Shown here piece by piece: positions 2,474 to 17,139 of a DNA stretch of 44,226 nt. The stretch is from a virus. Both the position numbers and the translations under genes were made by a program. Position 1 is the stretch's first letter; each line of letters starts with the position of its first letter. The stretch lies in UHGV virus genome UHGV-0346409. One strand, given 5' to 3'. The notes under the pieces were generated by a model. The model was not told where the DNA came from and ran no database searches. It saw only the letters and a list, made by a program, of their open reading frames with translations.

Positions 2474-4692
2474 GCTGTTTGCTCCTGTGCGGCGGCGAGA
2501 GCGGCGAGGCGTTCGGTTTTGATTTCATTCAAACGGCGCAGGCGCGAACCAAGATAAGTTGAATACTCCTTATCACCTTTGGATTCTGCGGCTTTGCGGT
2601 GAACTTCTACTTCCCGCGCAATAAGGCCATAGACTTTATTAACTTCATTGGGGGTTACGGCTGCAGCCAGTGTTTTGGCAACACCTGAGAGTCGTTCATC
2701 CAGTTCTTCACGCAGTCGGGTAGCATCCTCTGCTTTCTCGCTTGCCTTCTTAATACCGTATTCTGTATTCAGCTCGGCGGTGTAGGCACTATCGTTATGC
2801 ATATCCATATAAACATCTGCCGCAAATCCCAGATGAGATAGTGCTTTGACGGTGGCATCAGTAAGAGACTTTTTGGAGGCCTCTTTTTCCATTACCAGTG
2901 CCCCTTTGTTATTTTTTGATATGTAATCCGTGTGGCCATATGACGGAATAAATCCTTTCACTCCGTTCCAGACGTACCAGAGATCTATCCGGATGGTGTG
3001 TACTGACAGGCAGAACAGGGAGCCGTCAGCATCCCTGACAGGTTTTTGTCCAATAATTTTCCCTGTCTGATCCTGTATAGGTTCAAGTAATGGCACACCG
3101 CGATCCACTCGCTCCTCCTTGATTTCAACTCCCCAACCAATGCCTTCCATTCCCAGCACTTCAGTCGCACGCATCAAAATATATTGTGCGCGTATGGAGT
3201 GCAGTCCTGCACCGTAATCATTATGTGTGACATACGCAGGATCGGTCCGCTGAACGCGATTCCAGATAGCCAAATTTGCTTTGCTCTGGTCATCATTCAT
3301 TGCTGACAGATAATGCTCCATGCGAATTGATGCAGTTTTTTCCTCGGTATGGATCCGCTCAACCAGAGCGTCAACGTTCTGCACCAGGTCTTTTACCTGC
3401 TCGCTAAGTTTTTCTTGTGGAGGAGTCTCTTCTTCCAGGATAACAGTTACAGATTCCCGCTGTGATACGGCGTTATTTTCTGGTACGCCATACACATGGC
3501 GGGGCGTGACAAACTGCTCACGCAACTGCTGCAAACTACGCTCTCCAGCATTTGCTGCTTCGCTTTTTTCGCCCTGATTTGAGGGGGGTTCTGACATCAT
3601 CCCATCGATTGAGAATCGCCCGCCGCCGTGGTTGGTGACTTTTACATCACCCTTTGGTGCTGCGTCCTTTGGCTTCTCTTCAACAGCATTTGCATCACGC
3701 TGCCCGTTAGCTTGCAGCCAGTTGTCGATGTGACTGCGCAGGGATTGCGGGAAATGGTACGTGTCTTTTGCGGGGGCACTCTGAACGACACCGAATACGG
3801 ATGCCCGGTCATAGGAAAGGATCTGATCCGTTGTGCGCAAGGCCATTGACCAGCGTTTAAAATCCTCCCGATCCTGGCTGATTATTTCGTCTGCCGCTTT
3901 CAGGACGCTGGGGGTGATTTTTTCCGGGCCAACGGGTAACAGAGCGCAGGCAATTTCACGATCCAGTGTAGCGTGAGTCTGTTTGTAAGGACGTGCGGAT
4001 GCTGTTTCTGGTTTTACCTCCGGCAGCATTTCATCGCGTTTACCGGGATTCTCTACCCATTTTTTTATAAATTTGGAGATAGTCCAACTGGTCGGGTTTT
4101 GTTCCTGGGTATCGCAACTTGCCAAAATTGCATGTACCAGATTATTCAATCCAGCAATATGCATGTACTCGATGGGCTTACACGCCACCATGGCATCAAG
4201 AACGATGCGGTTAAACGCGTCAACCTCATCCTCACTGTCAGTATCACTGTTGTCGAGCATCTCCAGGTATTCACGCGTCTGCGCAAGCAATTCACTGTTG
4301 ACTTCGTTGGCGTCGTGGCTGAACAGCAGAACGGCGGCGAATCGTTCACGAGCCGGCAGTTTCATCAGGTCGTTAACCTGTGCGATATCTGCTGAACCGC
4401 TATCTACAACGGGGGTGTTAACTACCCATTTTTCGCCATCAAAACTGTGTTCTGTGGCGAACGTCTCATCAAACTCACCAACGCCTGGGCGCGGTTGGCC
4501 CGGGGCATCTTCCCAGATTTTAGGTTTGAAATAGTTGTCGCCGTGGTCAGGGTAGGCTTCCCACAATTTGCCGATGATGATGTTCTCGGCAACTTTTTTG
4601 TTAGGGGCGTCGATGGCGATGGCCAGCGCCGGGATCGCGCCGTTTTTGAGCGCGCCTTTTTTCGCTTCTAACAAGCCGTTAAAAATGGTCAT
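2470..4692 (-). CDS. Large recombination protein with ERF-like single-strand-annealing domain in its C-terminal half and an N-terminal ~430 aa of unknown function
   Basis: 740-aa ORF; region around aa 450-640 (NDYGAG..IRAQYIL.., ..KKSLTDATVKALSHLGFAADVYMD) resembles the ERF family by recall; preceded by ATGAGGAAAGACCA motif. Confidence 0.5.
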   Translation of the reverse strand: MTIFNGLLEAKKGALKNGAIPALAIAIDAPNKKVAENIIIGKLWEAYPDHGDNYFKPKIWEDAPGQPRPGVGEFDETFATEHSFDGEKWVVNTPVVDSGSADIAQVNDLMKLPARERFAAVLLFSHDANEVNSELLAQTREYLEMLDNSDTDSEDEVDAFNRIVLDAMVACKPIEYMHIAGLNNLVHAILASCDTQEQNPTSWTISKFIKKWVENPGKRDEMLPEVKPETASARPYKQTHATLDREIACALLPVGPEKITPSVLKAADEIISQDREDFKRWSMALRTTDQILSYDRASVFGVVQSAPAKDTYHFPQSLRSHIDNWLQANGQRDANAVEEKPKDAAPKGDVKVTNHGGGRFSIDGMMSEPPSNQGEKSEAANAGERSLQQLREQFVTPRHVYGVPENNAVSQRESVTVILEEETPPQEKLSEQVKDLVQNVDALVERIHTEEKTASIRMEHYLSAMNDDQSKANLAIWNRVQRTDPAYVTHNDYGAGLHSIRAQYILMRATEVLGMEGIGWGVEIKEERVDRGVPLLEPIQDQTGKIIGQKPVRDADGSLFCLSVHTIRIDLWYVWNGVKGFIPSYGHTDYISKNNKGALVMEKEASKKSLTDATVKALSHLGFAADVYMDMHNDSAYTAELNTEYGIKKASEKAEDATRLREELDERLSGVAKTLAAAVTPNEVNKVYGLIAREVEVHRKAAESKGDKEYSTYLGSRLRRLNEIKTERLAALAAAQEQTA

Positions 4693-4722
4693 TGGTCTTT
4701 CCTCATTACAGGTCAGTGGTTT

Positions 4723-5043
4723 TTAGTAGGGGAGCTCATCGGTATCTGGCGTGTATTCGATGCAAAGTAACTGCTGGATTTTGTCATCGATAGCAGCAAT
4801 ACGCTGTTGAGCGTCGGCGGCTGTATTCTGTTTTTGCTCACGCAGCTGCTCGACCTGCAAACCGATGATGTCGATTGGCTGGGGCTGGTTGACGGTAATT
4901 TCAATTTCGCGGCTTTCCAGAAGGATGTACCTGTCTGGAAAATTTTTTGACATATCAACCGTCGCAATAAACAGCTTTTCATGGCTGAAAGTTGAAGTTG
5001 CATAATGAATAAAGAGTGTTACTGGGATGGTGCGCGCTTCCAT
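4723..5043 (-). CDS. Hypothetical early protein (106 aa)
   Basis: ORF with AAGGAG 5 nt upstream of ATG. Confidence 0.5.
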   Translation of the reverse strand: MEARTIPVTLFIHYATSTFSHEKLFIATVDMSKNFPDRYILLESREIEITVNQPQPIDIIGLQVEQLREQKQNTAADAQQRIAAIDDKIQQLLCIEYTPDTDELPY

Positions 5044-12406: not shown

Positions 12407-12440
12407 CAGGTTGAATGTTTGGCGCGGTTATACTCTATTT

Positions 12441-12515
12441 GCGCTTAAAAAGGTATTTAGTCACAACCAGCACGAGGCCGAATACTCTGTCAAAGTACCG
12501 CCCATGTAAAACTGT
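12441..12515. repeat. Left copy of ~75-bp imperfect direct repeat; decayed remnant of the 3' end of a membrane-protein gene
   Basis: Aligns with 16042-16117 with 4 substitutions and 1 single-base indel; would encode ..FGLVLVVTKYLFKRK-stop on the minus strand but the frame is broken upstream. Confidence 0.7.
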
Positions 12516-12583: not shown

Positions 12584-13507
12584 TTATTGGTTTCTGAGGA
12601 AAGCGATTCTTGAAAGGGTCATTTGCGTCTGGCAGTCGACCATTTTCTTGACTTCAGCATCTGTTCCCTGCATTGAAACTTTACCGCACATAGCATCCTT
12701 AGTTTTGATCCACTGACGCTGAGAAGGCAGCAACTCTTTTTTCTTCGCCGGCGTTAACCTGCCCCAGACTGTATTCAAATCAGAGTCAGCATTCGCAAAT
12801 GCCATTCGGGACTGATCAAGGCTTTCAGCTTTTTGCGGCTGAAGTTGTGCCTGCCTCTCTATTTGCTTCTCCGCCTCATACCTGGCCTGTTCCTGTGCCC
12901 TGAGTTGCACCTGTTGTTCCGCTTCAATTTGACTCTGTTGGGCATCCTTAGCCTGCTGGATTTTCTGCTGCTCAACGATCGGGTTGATAATGGAAAGCGA
13001 TGTCAGTAAAGCGGCGCCCACTGATATCGGATTATCAGAAGAGGTTTTTACAAAAACGTTTTTCTGATCGTCGGTCGCCTGCACGGTGTAGGTGATACGT
13101 TTTGAAAAGGCGTTTGCGTTGTTCTCCAAAAACAGATTTTCCATTTGCTTATCGAGATTACGATTAAAATTCTTTCGGTAAGCATCAGAAAGCTGGATGT
13201 ACTCGTTCGCAGGTAGAGTCATCGTCACGGTCCCTTCACAAGTTTTCATTGTGCTGCCCGTGTCACTTGATGTTGTGGAGATTTCAGAGACGGCTAGTTT
13301 GATCTTGTCCAGTGTGCTTCGTTTGGTCTGATTAGTGACATCAGGGTATTTATCGACCTGTTCAGAGAGTCCTTCATAAGCAGATTTTTTTAATAAATCC
13401 ATGAGAGCTGATTGGGTCATTTCCGAAGAACAACCGATCTCATCTTTTTTGTTATCACAGCCTGTAAGGGCAATGGCGAGTAAGAGTACTGAGTATTTTA
13501 ATCTCAT
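12584..13507 (-). CDS. Lipoprotein with coiled-coil Q/E-rich middle region and DUF1311 (LprI-like) C-terminal domain
   Basis: Signal peptide with lipobox LTGC; C-terminus LNTVWGRL..QRQWIKTKDAMC..DCQTQMTLSRIAFL fits the DUF1311 pattern (recall). Confidence 0.6.
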   Translation of the reverse strand: MRLKYSVLLLAIALTGCDNKKDEIGCSSEMTQSALMDLLKKSAYEGLSEQVDKYPDVTNQTKRSTLDKIKLAVSEISTTSSDTGSTMKTCEGTVTMTLPANEYIQLSDAYRKNFNRNLDKQMENLFLENNANAFSKRITYTVQATDDQKNVFVKTSSDNPISVGAALLTSLSIINPIVEQQKIQQAKDAQQSQIEAEQQVQLRAQEQARYEAEKQIERQAQLQPQKAESLDQSRMAFANADSDLNTVWGRLTPAKKKELLPSQRQWIKTKDAMCGKVSMQGTDAEVKKMVDCQTQMTLSRIAFLRNQ

Positions 13508-14133
13508 GAATTCCCTTTAGAGTAAGGATTGGTTTTTAAGACGCGGTCTGTAATCAGTTCCGAGAGCTACAGTAAACAACGCTGAGCACTGAACGCATCA
13601 CAGGCAAGGTAAAAGGTGATATCGGCAAAGGCTGTGAAACCTTTAATTCAACAGATGGGAACGGTATGCACAGGATCCTGTAACGACGCTCCCAAAACCG
13701 GAAACCTGTAAGGCATGTTTTCGCTGCTGAACTTAATATACGAACCTGCACTATCATGAACATATTTTATATCGTTATACCCCGAGTGATTGTGCCCGGC
13801 AATGGATAGTGTCCTGGAGGAACTATTTCTACTGTAAAAGGTAGACATTTAATTTCAGTGTGGAATTATTCCCTGCTGTTAATAACCATGGCTCTATATG
13901 GCACCGAGCGGACTAGTTAACTTGCCTGAAAGCCGCTATGAGTGAGGAGCGAATATTGGCACGATAGGATACCTGAACCATTTTTTGGACATGCGCTAAA
14001 AGCGAATGATTAGTTTTATCGGAATATTTACAGTATACTTACAAGGCAAGCTTGGCGTACCGTCTTGGGCGAGATTGCTTAAATTATTTTGTGGATATAT
14101 CATTCAAACAAAAGATAATAAAATGAGGTTGTT

Positions 14134-14331
14134 ATGTCATATATTCGCGTAGAGAAAGATGGCCTTCAGTATGAAGCAGAATACTTCCGTGAAGAGGATA
14201 TGGTCACAGTCTTTGGGGTTAGAGGAGGGCATTCCAGCGTGGTTCTAAATGGAATGACAGAAGTCGCGGCTGCTCGTACTGCGTTACGAAATCTTATTAG
14301 AGAAAATCAGGTTGATCCTCTAACTGATTAA
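14134..14331 (+). CDS. Hypothetical protein (65 aa), AT-rich cargo gene
   Basis: GAGG RBS; possible promoter-like elements upstream. Confidence 0.45.
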   Translation: MSYIRVEKDGLQYEAEYFREEDMVTVFGVRGGHSSVVLNGMTEVAAARTALRNLIRENQVDPLTD

Positions 14332-14535
14332 AAATAAGCCATCTTAACTGAGAGCATATTTTGATATAATTTAGATTAAATCTATTTTGAAGGTTAGTTT
14401 GGGATGAGAAGATTACATCAAAACCGTTATTACTAGCAATAAGTTGTGTAAATCAAATAATACATAATCAGGTGGTAATATATACTAAGCGTAGTAAAGT
14501 TTTTATATATTCCTGTAACTTTGTGAGAAACTTCC

Positions 14536-15201
14536 ATGAAAGCCGACAACTTAAGAATTATAGAGAATGGCAAATATGTTTTCGATATGTTCTTGGATAC
14601 TGGTGAATTTTACTATACAAGTCATGCCTTTGACACGAGAGAAGATGCAAAAAGCTGGATGGAAGAATGGCAGATTTGGGCAAATAATGTATCGAGTGGG
14701 AAAGTAAGTAGTATTTATTATATTTTACAAGTGCCTGATACTTGGGCCGGTTCTTCAGATAAAAATAACCCTTACTCGGGACTTTATGTGAAAATAGGGC
14801 GTTCCAATAATGTGCTAAAAAGGTTGTCTAACCTGCAGACAGGTGCATTTGGTCAATTAATATTACACGCTTTGGAACCAGGTGGTTCAGAAAAAGAAAA
14901 CTATCTTCATGAAAAATTTAGCAACGAAAGACGTCAAGGTGAATGGTTTGTTTGTACTAAGGAACTTACCAAGCATATATTTACAACATGGTTTAAAAAC
15001 AAAATGCTCCCACCAGAACATCAAATAAAAATAATGCAGCTCGCAGAAAGAATAGGTATTTATTCGCATGTTCATACACTAATGGGGGGGAAGCCAGACT
15101 TAGTAAACCCATCTATTAGTGAACCTTGGGAATGCGAAAAATATGTTTTGGTTGATATGATTTATAGCTCTTTAGCAAAGCAAGTTAATCATAAAAAATA
15201 A
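14536..15201 (+). CDS. T5orf172-domain (GIY-YIG-like) protein with unknown N- and C-terminal extensions
   Basis: Central region IYYILQ..GLYVKIGRSNNVLKRLSNLQTG..LHEKFSNERRQGEWF matches the T5orf172/MUG113 signature (recall); AT-rich coding sequence. Confidence 0.6.
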   Translation: MKADNLRIIENGKYVFDMFLDTGEFYYTSHAFDTREDAKSWMEEWQIWANNVSSGKVSSIYYILQVPDTWAGSSDKNNPYSGLYVKIGRSNNVLKRLSNLQTGAFGQLILHALEPGGSEKENYLHEKFSNERRQGEWFVCTKELTKHIFTTWFKNKMLPPEHQIKIMQLAERIGIYSHVHTLMGGKPDLVNPSISEPWECEKYVLVDMIYSSLAKQVNHKK

Positions 15202-15521
15202 AGTGTTACATTTTAACTATACAATTATTGATTCACTAATGAAGAGGTGATTTAGACGTATGAAGTTTTAATAAGCTCCAAGAATATTTTGTCATACATG
15301 GGTTAAAGAGTTATATAATAATATCTGCTTCTGGAACACAGCAGACAAGCACCTGCAGATAAAGGTCTGCTGAGAGCGAGAAGCGGATCATACGTTGGAA
15401 GTTGTTTAGGCAAATACGTTATAAACGTATTTGATTAAATTTACTTGGATCATAGTCTTCAATAACGCTTTATTATATTGTTTTTCATGCAGCAAACAGG
15501 TTCACAGGTAGGTAATAAGCT

Positions 15522-15926
15522 ATGAGTGGATGGAAAGAGCCTTTTACATTAGCAGAACAGATACAATTAGCATTAAATTTAGGTTATGAGGCTGTACCAG
15601 ATGAAGAGGCATATACTGGGGCATACTTCATTAAAGGTGGTAAGAAGTGGATCTTTAACATCATCGGTCTCAAAAAGACATTGAATATATCTTCAGATGA
15701 TGAACTAAGAGGGCAGGATTATGATGTTGATATGTATTTCGAAATTCGCCAAAATTGGGCACAATACCAAGATATGATCTTTGGAAGCGAAGATATCACT
15801 CCTTCACCTAAAAATGAACTTACTTCAATTTACCATGACCTGCAGGTAACGGATGAACCCAGGGAAATGGTGTATCTTTCTGATGGGATGTGGCTGGATC
15901 CCAACGGACGAATTGTACAACGATAG
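15522..15926 (+). CDS. Hypothetical protein (134 aa), acidic, AT-rich cargo gene
   Basis: ORF with AGGTAGG upstream; no recognisable motif. Confidence 0.45.
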   Translation: MSGWKEPFTLAEQIQLALNLGYEAVPDEEAYTGAYFIKGGKKWIFNIIGLKKTLNISSDDELRGQDYDVDMYFEIRQNWAQYQDMIFGSEDITPSPKNELTSIYHDLQVTDEPREMVYLSDGMWLDPNGRIVQR

Positions 15927-16035
15927 CACTCGAACACACTCAGTAATCGTCTATAAGGCCAGCACTTGTTACTTGGTCATTTGGGGTTGCTGGTCTTCTC
16001 CATTAAATCGACTAAAGTCTGTTCCATAGAGAGAG

Positions 16036-16641
16036 TTACTTGCGTTTAAAAAGGTATTTTGTCACGACCAGCACGAGGCCGAATACCTCTGTCAAAGTAC
16101 CGCCCATGTACAACTGTAGTGTTAAATCCTCAAATTCCAGCTTACCTGCGCCGTCGGCAATAAATACACCATTCATTATCAGAAGTTGGCAAGCAAGGAT
16201 AATCAGGAACCATTTCCCGTATCGTTTTTTTAGAGCGATTTCTGCTTCAAAATCTTTGTTGTTGAGTTGTTTGCGCTCATGCTCGGTATCAAGTGAATTC
16301 ACCTGTTTCACAGATGTGAACTCGGTCAAGATTTTACTCTCAGTACGGGTGACTTGTTGAGAGGGTGTAACAGTTGGAATTCTTTTGCTAGACGCAGCTA
16401 CAGCCATTTTGCGAGCTTCGGCAGCTCTTTTTCTGGCTATTCCGCGAATACGGACAGCCGTTTTTTTGGGGGCGTGCGAAACCTTTGGCTGAGGTGAAGT
16501 TTCGTCAGGAGACTGAACCGGGGTTTCATCGTCCCCCGGCTCAACCTCTTCTGCTAACTGACGGTGTAGGTTGAGGGAATCCTTCAGTCGGCGTGCAACT
16601 TCCTGTTTGAAACGGCTGTTAAAATCGTCATCCGATGGCAT
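16036..16641 (-). CDS. Membrane protein: charged, low-complexity N-terminal region and two C-terminal transmembrane helices
   Basis: Hydrophobic segments WFLIILACQLLIMNGVFI and LTEVFGLVLVV near the C-terminus; start 9 nt after the ImmA-like stop (operon). Confidence 0.6.
   Translation of the reverse strand: MPSDDDFNSRFKQEVARRLKDSLNLHRQLAEEVEPGDDETPVQSPDETSPQPKVSHAPKKTAVRIRGIARKRAAEARKMAVAASSKRIPTVTPSQQVTRTESKILTEFTSVKQVNSLDTEHERKQLNNKDFEAEIALKKRYGKWFLIILACQLLIMNGVFIADGAGKLEFEDLTLQLYMGGTLTEVFGLVLVVTKYLFKRK
16042..16117. repeat. Right copy of ~75-bp imperfect direct repeat, lying within the 3' end of the membrane-protein gene
   Basis: Aligns with 12441-12515 (about 93% identity). Confidence 0.7.
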
Positions 16642-16650
16642 TCTAAAGCG

Positions 16651-17139
16651 TTACCCCAACCTCAAGTTCTTTAAACGATAAGTCATCGCATCGTCAGATA
16701 CGCCAAAATAATGCGCCATTATATAACTTGGTTGGCCGTCAGCGTGCAGTTTTCTGACCTCATCAACCGGCATCAGAAGTTCTGCTGCGAACTTGTTCGC
16801 AAAAATTTCATCAGGATGCGTTCCGGCGCTTGCGGTTTCGCCACGTAAATCAACGTACTCATATTCATCACTATGCGATGCTTGCCGGGCGATGTAATGC
16901 CCCAACTCATGCCCACATGAAAAACGTTGACGAACTTTGTTGTCATCACTGTTTAGAAAGATCGCTGGATCTTGATCTTTTTGTTTAATCAGTGCGCCAG
17001 AAACTTTCCCAGGAAGATCGGTAATAAAAACATCTAATCCCATGTCGTGAGCAATTTTCGCTGGATCAACAGGGAAACCACGCCCGCACCAGAACGTGTC
17101 CAGCACTCGCCGGGCGTGCTCTCTTGGGTTGGTAGCCAT
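16651..17139 (-). CDS. ImmA/IrrE-family zinc metallopeptidase (COG2856/DUF955-like)
   Basis: HExxH motif (CGHELGHY) and downstream E..ANKFAAELLMP segment typical of ImmA/IrrE peptidases (recall); GGAGG RBS. Confidence 0.75.
   Translation of the reverse strand: MATNPREHARRVLDTFWCGRGFPVDPAKIAHDMGLDVFITDLPGKVSGALIKQKDQDPAIFLNSDDNKVRQRFSCGHELGHYIARQASHSDEYEYVDLRGETASAGTHPDEIFANKFAAELLMPVDEVRKLHADGQPSYIMAHYFGVSDDAMTYRLKNLRLG

Follow-up and report, generated by a model that had tools for sequence, protein, structure and literature searches.

Two proteins in which a GIY-YIG nuclease is combined with other domains are established as single-gene anti-phage systems. PD-T4-3, which was recovered in a functional screen of the Escherichia coli pangenome (PMC9519451), is CMoRE, an experimentally demonstrated single-protein type IV restriction enzyme that joins a GIY-YIG nuclease to a modification-sensing domain (PMC12923530, PMC12366544); that domain, together with an acidic inhibitory loop, sets both its substrate and its restraint (PMC12923530). 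In SNIPE, discrimination is provided by membrane tethering and a DUF4041 domain (PMC13190303). GIY-YIG and T5orf172 domains are catalytically active effectors in phage conflicts, as illustrated by the E414A substitution in SNIPE (PMC13190303) and by a glutamate-dependent T5orf172 nuclease (PMC10448857). Here we examine a gene for a predicted T5orf172-type nuclease of 221 amino acids in the virus genome UHGV-0346409, the whole 44,226-nucleotide stretch of which is referred to below as the window. An earlier sequence-only reading of positions 14,134 to 15,926 had placed this gene at the centre of a three-gene, AT-rich module with a candidate anti-phage or abortive-infection role. Our analysis favors a different arrangement, in which the 221-residue protein would be a self-contained, single-gene defence nuclease carried as prophage cargo in a defence hotspot, a reading to which we give an even chance of being correct; the genes on either side of it, encoding proteins of 65 and 134 amino acids, are unrelated small cargo and not required partners of the nuclease.

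The 221-residue protein belongs to the T5orf172/MUG113 clade of the GIY-YIG superfamily. The T5orf172/MUG113 signature that the sequence-only reading had recognized in its central region is borne out by profile hidden Markov model searches, with matches to Pfam MUG113 (PF13455; residues 85-147, E-value 6.4e-10, 39.9 bits against a cut-off of 22.3) and to T5orf172 (PF10544; residues 74-152, E-value 4.4e-7, 30.8 bits against a cut-off of 20), both above threshold; the motif residues are invariant, and the predicted fold is of the expected alpha/beta type. Across 28 homologs sharing 39-90% identity the invariant positions of the central region are Y61, Y62, K86-I87-G88, R96, E121, H125 and R132-R133-x-G135-E136-W137-F138. 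E136, within the invariant G-E-W-F, together with R96 and Y61/Y62, are the predicted catalytic residues, by analogy with the roles described for T5orf172 nucleases (PMC10448857) and for E414 of SNIPE (PMC13190303). Invariance extends into the flanking domains in the same 28 sequences, at W45, W48, L158, P159, N191, P192, W198 and D207. The gene is under purifying constraint, with a ratio of nonsynonymous to synonymous substitution rates (dN/dS) of 0.11-0.13, and its product matches phrog_8130, a family of unassigned function in PHROGs, over its full length (E-value 3.6e-78); NCBIfam contains no match.

Structure prediction gave confident models of the 65- and 221-residue proteins. The AlphaFold2 model of the nuclease, built from an alignment of 28 sequences, has a predicted local distance difference test score (pLDDT) of 89.6 and a predicted template modelling score of 0.85, and contains a GIY-YIG core between two further domains. 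These correspond to the N- and C-terminal segments that the sequence-only reading could not place, and for which Pfam indeed has no match. The N-terminal domain, a putative sensor or dimerisation domain, may have a UPF0339/YegP-like fold, although it has no match to the corresponding Pfam family PF07411 (UPF0339/YegP, DUF1508) at an E-value of 1 or below; a further difference from the small UPF0339/YegP proteins is that here one copy is joined to a nuclease. For the YegP fold, the only hint of function is the proposal that paired DUF1508 domains at the N-terminus of Menshen NsnA are Whirly-like nucleic-acid sensors (PMC12065111). For the C-terminal helical domain no fold or sequence match was found. 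No library entry matches the model as a whole (TM-score normalised to the query of at most 0.37), a profile search of the family against Protein Data Bank (PDB) sequences returned nothing, and the best matches among solved nuclease folds are the structure-specific endonucleases Slx1 and HIGLE. The protein has no transmembrane segment (the highest Kyte-Doolittle mean over 19 residues is 0.49), and it contains two cysteines only, without a CxxC motif. The combination of a YegP-like N-terminal domain, a T5orf172 core and a helical C-terminal domain has no counterpart among PADLOC defence families, Pfam architectures, or the solved and viral predicted structures that were searched.

Like CMoRE, the 221-residue protein is the product of a single gene that joins a GIY-YIG nuclease to one or more non-catalytic domains without a methylase or other partner, and both occupy the same prophage slot, as described below. 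However, the two share no sequence similarity (BLASTP against the PD-T4-3 protein of strain E24377A gives an E-value of 1.0, and there is no PADLOC PD-T4-3 match at an E-value of 1 or below), the CMoRE nuclease is N-terminal whereas this one is central (residues 56-141), and the accessory domains are unrelated. The core is of the T5orf172 clade, with adjacent tyrosines Y61-Y62 (S-I-Y-Y-I) in place of a GIYxY motif, and the CMoRE entries in the PDB are not among the fold matches of the model. SNIPE, in which a transmembrane region, DUF4041 and a GIY-YIG domain are combined, is likewise a single-protein defence with a catalytic glutamate and accessory domains for telling self from non-self, but the protein described here lacks a transmembrane segment and any Pfam match to DUF4041 and, at 221 residues, is predicted to be soluble. 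The T5orf172 homing endonucleases of ICP1 and T5-like phages, and their derivatives Odn and CapR, resemble it in the Pfam T5orf172 catalytic domain, in being virus-encoded and in lying at mosaic junctions (PMC10448857); it differs from them in lacking the DNA-binding zinc-finger repeats, in belonging to a family that sequenced lytic phages do not contain, and in its mobility and genomic contexts.

This architecture is rare and widely scattered. A word-indexed search recovered 34 relatives, nearly all of 211-242 amino acids and aligned end to end, and an exhaustive profile search of 1.84 billion representative sequences gave 12 matches at an E-value of 1e-30 or below, beyond which the matches fall off sharply to 29,613 proteins with the T5orf172 core only; the three-part architecture thus marks out a subfamily that is small and has sharp limits within a very large domain family. 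There are about 17 full-length matches among 185,579 species genomes, and the known members come from Enterobacterales, Vibrio, Moritella, Pseudoalteromonas, Colwellia, Thiohalophilus, cyanobacteria, Dehalococcoidia, Acidobacteriota and Planctomycetota, a scattered pattern that points to horizontal spread. Translated searches (tblastn) gave no match in 50,697 phage records or 72,556 plasmids, and full-length members are present in only three of 2.9 million viral contigs, two of which are the prophage described here. A literature search with the three RefSeq protein accessions of the locus returned nothing, and the papers seen on integron-cassette screens mention no GIY-YIG or T5orf172 cassette. 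The best of the core-only relatives, P0108 (591 residues) and P0107 (446 residues), appear by eye to contain two T5orf172 domains each; in P0108 these are preceded by a hydrophobic stretch at the N-terminus and by a long charged region, giving it a SNIPE-like look, and in P0107 they follow CxxC repeats, giving it the look of a homing endonuclease. Two candidate domain-swapped relatives, P0115 and P0238, were rejected as a transposase fusion and a frameshifted fragment.

The location of the gene supports its interpretation as foreign cargo. A prophage of E. coli O43 strain RM10042, integrated beside a tRNA-Ser gene and mtfA, matches the window with 100% identity; it encodes an integrase, a cI/Cro-like switch, replication genes, a Q antiterminator and lysis genes, together with a lambda-like head and a P2-like baseplate and tail. 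The cargo slot lies between the replication module and Q, in the equivalent of the lambda nin region, and its breakpoints at 13908/13909 and 16013/16014 were defined by pairwise blastn against the sister prophages of strains 81009 (L002) and E24377A (L003), which carry other cargo at the same position. The AT-richness of the block, already noticed in the sequence-only reading, is pronounced: positions 13909-16013 have a fractional GC content of 0.365, compared with 0.484 for the whole window, and are its lowest-GC 2.1-kb stretch, with only seven of 843 overlapping 2105-bp windows as low, all of them overlapping the block. The 2.2-kb cargo block is found in 18 of 5,426 complete E. coli genomes, always in the chromosome, whereas the flanking backbone is found in roughly 430, which argues for cargo and against conserved backbone; megablast of the cassette against the 50,697 phage records gave no match. 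In strain E24377A the slot is occupied by a 268-residue protein that is a full-length match to PADLOC PD-T4-3 (E-value 5.7e-138). The presence of PD-T4-3/CMoRE in the same slot therefore identifies it as a place where this prophage lineage keeps defence cargo.

Homologs of the nuclease elsewhere also lie among defence genes. Within an Enterobacter cloacae chromosomal islet the homolog is convergent with AriA and AriB of PARIS, in Enterobacter genomosp. O it adjoins a HEPN_AbiV gene, and in a Citrobacter island and a viral contig it is found between a complete Shango SngABC system and an MkoC-like helicase. In an Enterobacter island (L004) it keeps company with anti-restriction, RadC and DUF932 genes and with a further T5orf172 gene close by; the latter encodes an unrelated 268-residue T5orf172/MUG113 protein that is paired with a 302-residue protein (positions 3176-4892, minus strand) about 1 kb upstream of the 65-residue gene, and neither member of this pair has a PADLOC match. 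A bulk scan of 127 neighboring open reading frames (ORFs) at 14 loci gave matches to BrxC, BrxHI, an Eco29kI-type restriction-modification pair, PtuA and a DRT-type (defence-associated) reverse transcriptase as well as to housekeeping genes, these being raw matches. In Vibrio vulnificus and V. pacinii the homolog is a one-gene integron cassette, with attC sites of the Vibrio cholerae repeat type directly on both sides of the ORF, and this provides the strongest evidence that the nuclease works alone. The defence context that the sequence-only reading had suspected is thus upheld by PD-T4-3/CMoRE in the same slot and by PARIS, AbiV and Shango beside the homologs, but nothing specific points to abortive infection.

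The picture of a three-gene module, by contrast, gives way once DNA and protein neighborhoods are compared. The three ORFs themselves are real, constrained genes, since their dN/dS ratios against orthologs are 0.11-0.21; their coordinates, all on the plus strand, are as previously listed (14134-14331, 14536-15201 and 15522-15926), and RefSeq annotates identical coding sequences in the RM10042 prophage. They lie, however, in two separate DNA blocks. Module A, with the 65- and 221-residue genes, has 84-86% nucleotide identity to the Enterobacter and Citrobacter islands (L004, L028, L029, L052) over exactly 14038-15387, whereas Module B has 82-84% nucleotide identity to the edges of unrelated Proteus (L012-L014) and Citrobacter (L015-L017) prophages, where the 134-residue gene occurs alone; an ApeA-type HEPN gene neighbors one of those copies, and another is located past ogr, where a P2-like prophage ends. 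A hairpin at the junction of the two blocks, part of which (15411-15433) is matched in a scan for terminator-like structures, is possibly the terminator of Module A. In an all-against-all ORF comparison across 20 nuclease loci, representing six phyla, the nuclease is the only gene common to more than four loci, and the only other shared gene is that for the 65-residue protein, which is found in four of the compared loci (six when the window and L052 are counted), all with nucleases of at least 90% identity. The nuclease is thus conserved by itself, with the 65-residue gene linked to it only among close relatives and the 134-residue gene only within the same prophage lineage. These comparisons show the locus to be a stack of three independently mobile units in one slot and not a three-gene module.

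The intergenic stretches of the block have a GC content of 0.275-0.38, so that the AT-rich upstream regions seen in the sequence-only reading are present, but the eight promoter-like matches upstream of the genes are no commoner than the 9.4 expected in shuffled sequence, and independent promoters are for this reason plausible but unproven. An Rfam scan of 13500-16200 found no match.

If the 221-residue protein is a defence nuclease, it would cut incoming foreign DNA directly and so protect the lysogen, and with it the prophage. The T5orf172-type GIY-YIG core would do the cutting, while the acidic YegP-like N-terminal domain and the basic helical C-terminal domain would select the target and keep the enzyme off the host chromosome, perhaps by recognizing something distinctive in phage DNA, for instance a modified base or an atypical structure, or through an autoinhibition that infection relieves. 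The division of labor would be that of CMoRE and SNIPE. The domain identity, the conserved motif residues, the fold, the mobility as a single gene, the defence-rich surroundings and the hotspot are results of the analysis, whereas we infer nuclease activity, target discrimination and an anti-phage phenotype in this account, and any specific trigger, such as modified bases, is proposed with far less confidence than the defence role itself. The single-gene nuclease is what we retain, as a candidate, of the anti-phage module originally suggested. A protective role would make this the third distinct single-protein GIY-YIG defence architecture after CMoRE and SNIPE, one compact enough to travel as a one-gene integron cassette, and the means by which a soluble, partnerless nuclease spares the host chromosome would bear on the broader question of self and non-self discrimination; a function for the YegP/UPF0339 fold could follow as well. 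A more ambitious version, which we regard as a long shot, is that this new single-protein immune nuclease uses its YegP/UPF0339-like domain as a sensor of infection or of DNA, the first function for a widespread orphan fold, and that the 65-residue protein, far from a passive passenger, is a portable accessory, for example a regulator or an adaptor, at the service of defence systems as unrelated as Lamassu, Shango and the nuclease.

The gene could instead be a selfish, free-standing homing endonuclease, or a decayed one, that persists by cutting nuclease-free alleles and copying itself into them, and brings no benefit to the host. Homing is the role best documented for T5orf172 domains in phages; in ICP1, T5-like phages and others T5orf172 proteins are the principal family of homing endonucleases, and nuclease genes lie at boundaries of exchange between phages (PMC10448857). 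The gene described here sits at a mosaic boundary; P0107, among the closest core-only relatives, also has CxxC repeats like those endonucleases. Several features nevertheless make this unlikely. The protein has no CapR, DUF723 or DUF4397 zinc-finger DNA-binding domain (Pfam, E-value of 1 or below) and only two cysteines; the family is absent from the phage records and nearly so from the viral contigs; instead of an empty target site, the slot's alternative alleles hold different cargo of comparable size; no essential phage gene adjoins the gene; and its relatives move as integron cassettes in Vibrio and occupy chromosomal islets beside PARIS. A sequence-specific weapon against one competing element, be it a satellite, a plasmid or a rival prophage, is a second possibility, which we hold to be just as improbable. 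Its precedent is the conflict between ICP1 and PLE (an element resembling phage-inducible chromosomal islands), in which Odn and CapR are the T5orf172 proteins used (PMC8263062, PMC8096241; discussed in PMC10448857), and the carriers of the gene are a prophage and integrative islands in which anti-restriction genes are present too. A narrow target is, however, a poor fit to a full-length architecture kept from Enterobacterales to cyanobacteria and Planctomycetota, and no sequence-reading domain is recognisable; this explanation moreover overlaps that of a defence nuclease and differs from it only in the breadth of the target.

A toxin-antitoxin or abortive-infection pair, in which the nuclease is a toxin held in check by the acidic 65-residue protein and released on infection to kill the cell, has in its favor that the 65-residue gene is directly upstream of the nuclease in every relative at about 90% identity or more (the window, L004, L027-L029 and L052), its product is small, acidic and well folded, and Vibrio cassette arrays are rich in toxin-antitoxin genes. 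We think it very unlikely, since 14 of the 20 nuclease loci, among them the single-gene integron cassettes, lack the 65-residue gene, which also turns up behind Lamassu and within CP4-57-like islands where there is no nuclease, and the two genes are separated by an AT-rich gap of 204 bp, unlike those of a tight operon. The least probable alternative is that of a housekeeping enzyme of the phage, a structure-specific endonuclease for recombination or DNA processing comparable to Rap/NinG, which is encoded in the lambda nin region. Both the nin-equivalent position of the slot, between the replication genes and the Q antiterminator, and the match to Slx1 and HIGLE speak for such a role, but the rarity of the gene, its foreign composition and its non-phage distribution do not fit. 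On balance we prefer a single-gene defence nuclease to these explanations, and the coordinates of the features that we refer to are collected in Table 1.

Table 1. Position and character of the features of the cargo slot, with coordinates in the window.
Feature	Coordinates	Strand	Description
Variable cargo slot	13909..16013	.	Flanked by the LprI-like lipoprotein gene and the 201-aa (amino acid)/ImmA gene pair
Module A (65-aa and 221-aa genes)	14038..15387	+	One DNA block common to Enterobacter and Citrobacter islands
65-aa protein	14134..14331	+	Acidic, isoelectric point (pI) 4.8; confident four strands and one helix, pLDDT 94.6
221-aa T5orf172-clade GIY-YIG predicted nuclease	14536..15201	+	Pfam matches; conserved unit; candidate defence effector
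N-terminal domain, residues 1-55	14536..14700	+	Acidic, pI 4.45; three strands and a helix; possible UPF0339/YegP-like fold
Catalytic core (predicted), residues 56-141	14701..14958	+	GIY-YIG/T5orf172 fold; basic, pI 8.8
C-terminal helical domain, residues 142-221	14959..15198	+	Basic, pI 9.1; family-conserved; helices 142-155, 160-183 and 212-220
Hairpin at junction of Modules A and B	15405..15439	+	16-nucleotide arms, 88% complementary; 3-nucleotide loop; terminator-like scan match
Module B (134-aa gene)	15416..16009	+	Separately mobile block
134-aa protein	15522..15926	+	Strongly acidic, pI 4.4, net charge -11; no recognisable relative

The two small genes have histories of their own, and neither product has a match in Pfam, PHROG, PADLOC or NCBIfam. 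The 65-residue gene has a dN/dS of 0.11-0.21. Away from the nuclease it is shared among loci as a unit of about 14067-14395, comprising the gene and some tens of bases around it. In E. coli and Xenorhabdus (L022-L026, positions 4001-4198) a complete Lamassu operon (LmuA-LmuC-LmuB) has a homolog 39 bp past its LmuB gene, the Lamassu superfamily being the one to which the ABC-3C systems belong (PMC10586767), and in Citrobacter (L028 and L052, 7552-7749) a homolog lies about 250 bp after SngC of Shango; the gene is also present in a CP4-57-like island of Citrobacter freundii. Its recurrence at the 3' edge of both Lamassu and Shango operons suggests that it may act as an accessory or a regulator, and it deserves to be flagged there. 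A profile of the family gives weak, recurrent matches to CsrA among PDB sequences (E-values 0.14-1.2), a lead only, which the predicted fold neither confirms nor excludes. The notion that the protein mimics the N-terminal domain of the nuclease was rejected, the hhalign probability being 0.5%.

Homologs of the 134-residue protein, all of exactly that length, are found in Proteus, Providencia, Serratia, Citrobacter and Yersinia, and the gene (dN/dS 0.13-0.19) is absent from every nuclease locus except those of the same prophage lineage. Its distribution marks it as a moron in its own right that does not partner the nuclease; its role may be in defence, in anti-defence or in something unrelated. 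A profile search of this family against PDB sequences returned nothing. At locus L052 (9064-9723, minus strand) a 219-residue protein without a family match has 49% identity to residues 100-134 of the 134-residue protein, and the alignment suggests that the two share a C-terminal module.

The contents of the slot in related prophages vary further. The commonest alternative cargo, present in strain 81009 (L002, 4339-5037) and in most related prophages, is a predicted membrane protein of 232 residues with an N-terminal hydrophobic segment and a weak match to the transmembrane protein associated with DRT systems (PADLOC RTasTM, E-value 1.8e-5); about 0.8 kb of unannotated DNA lies upstream of its gene in strain 81009. 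In E24377A the slot (L003, 8461-13965) holds, besides PD-T4-3, a 411-residue HNH_2 protein and proteins of 186, 459 and 220 residues without a significant family match. NCBIfam has no match for the alternative slot cargo. With its boundaries at the LprI-like gene and the 201-residue/ImmA pair, this E. coli prophage hotspot is now defined and can be mined for more cargo.

The genes on either side of the slot offer some additional observations. On the right is a conserved backbone pair (16036-17139, minus strand) without an adjacent helix-turn-helix repressor, consisting of an ImmA/IrrE metalloprotease (PADLOC capP, E-value 2.4e-25; Pfam Peptidase_M78) and a 201-residue protein that belongs to phrog_5346, of unassigned function in PHROGs, and has a hydrophobic C-terminal stretch as judged by eye. 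On the left, the LprI-like gene (12584-13507, minus strand) runs opposite to the early operon; its product resembles a lipoprotein, has an LprI lysozyme-inhibitor domain at the C-terminus (Pfam E-value 5.4e-8) and matches phrog_5094. Spacers of E. coli type I-E CRISPR (clustered regularly interspaced short palindromic repeat) arrays match both sides, none of them targeting the cassette: one, found for example in NZ_CP028578 beside cas2e, matches the start of the LprI-like gene (13472-13515, 93% over 45 nucleotides), and a second, in NZ_CP178438, matches inside the ImmA gene (16899-16933, 100% over 35 nucleotides). The LprI-like gene and the slot are together bracketed by an 81-bp direct repeat (12436-12515 and 16037-16117), the copies of which are 92-97% identical and 3.6 kb apart; the right copy is the 3' end of the 201-residue gene and the left copy is a relic, and the repeat may be the homology used for cargo exchange.

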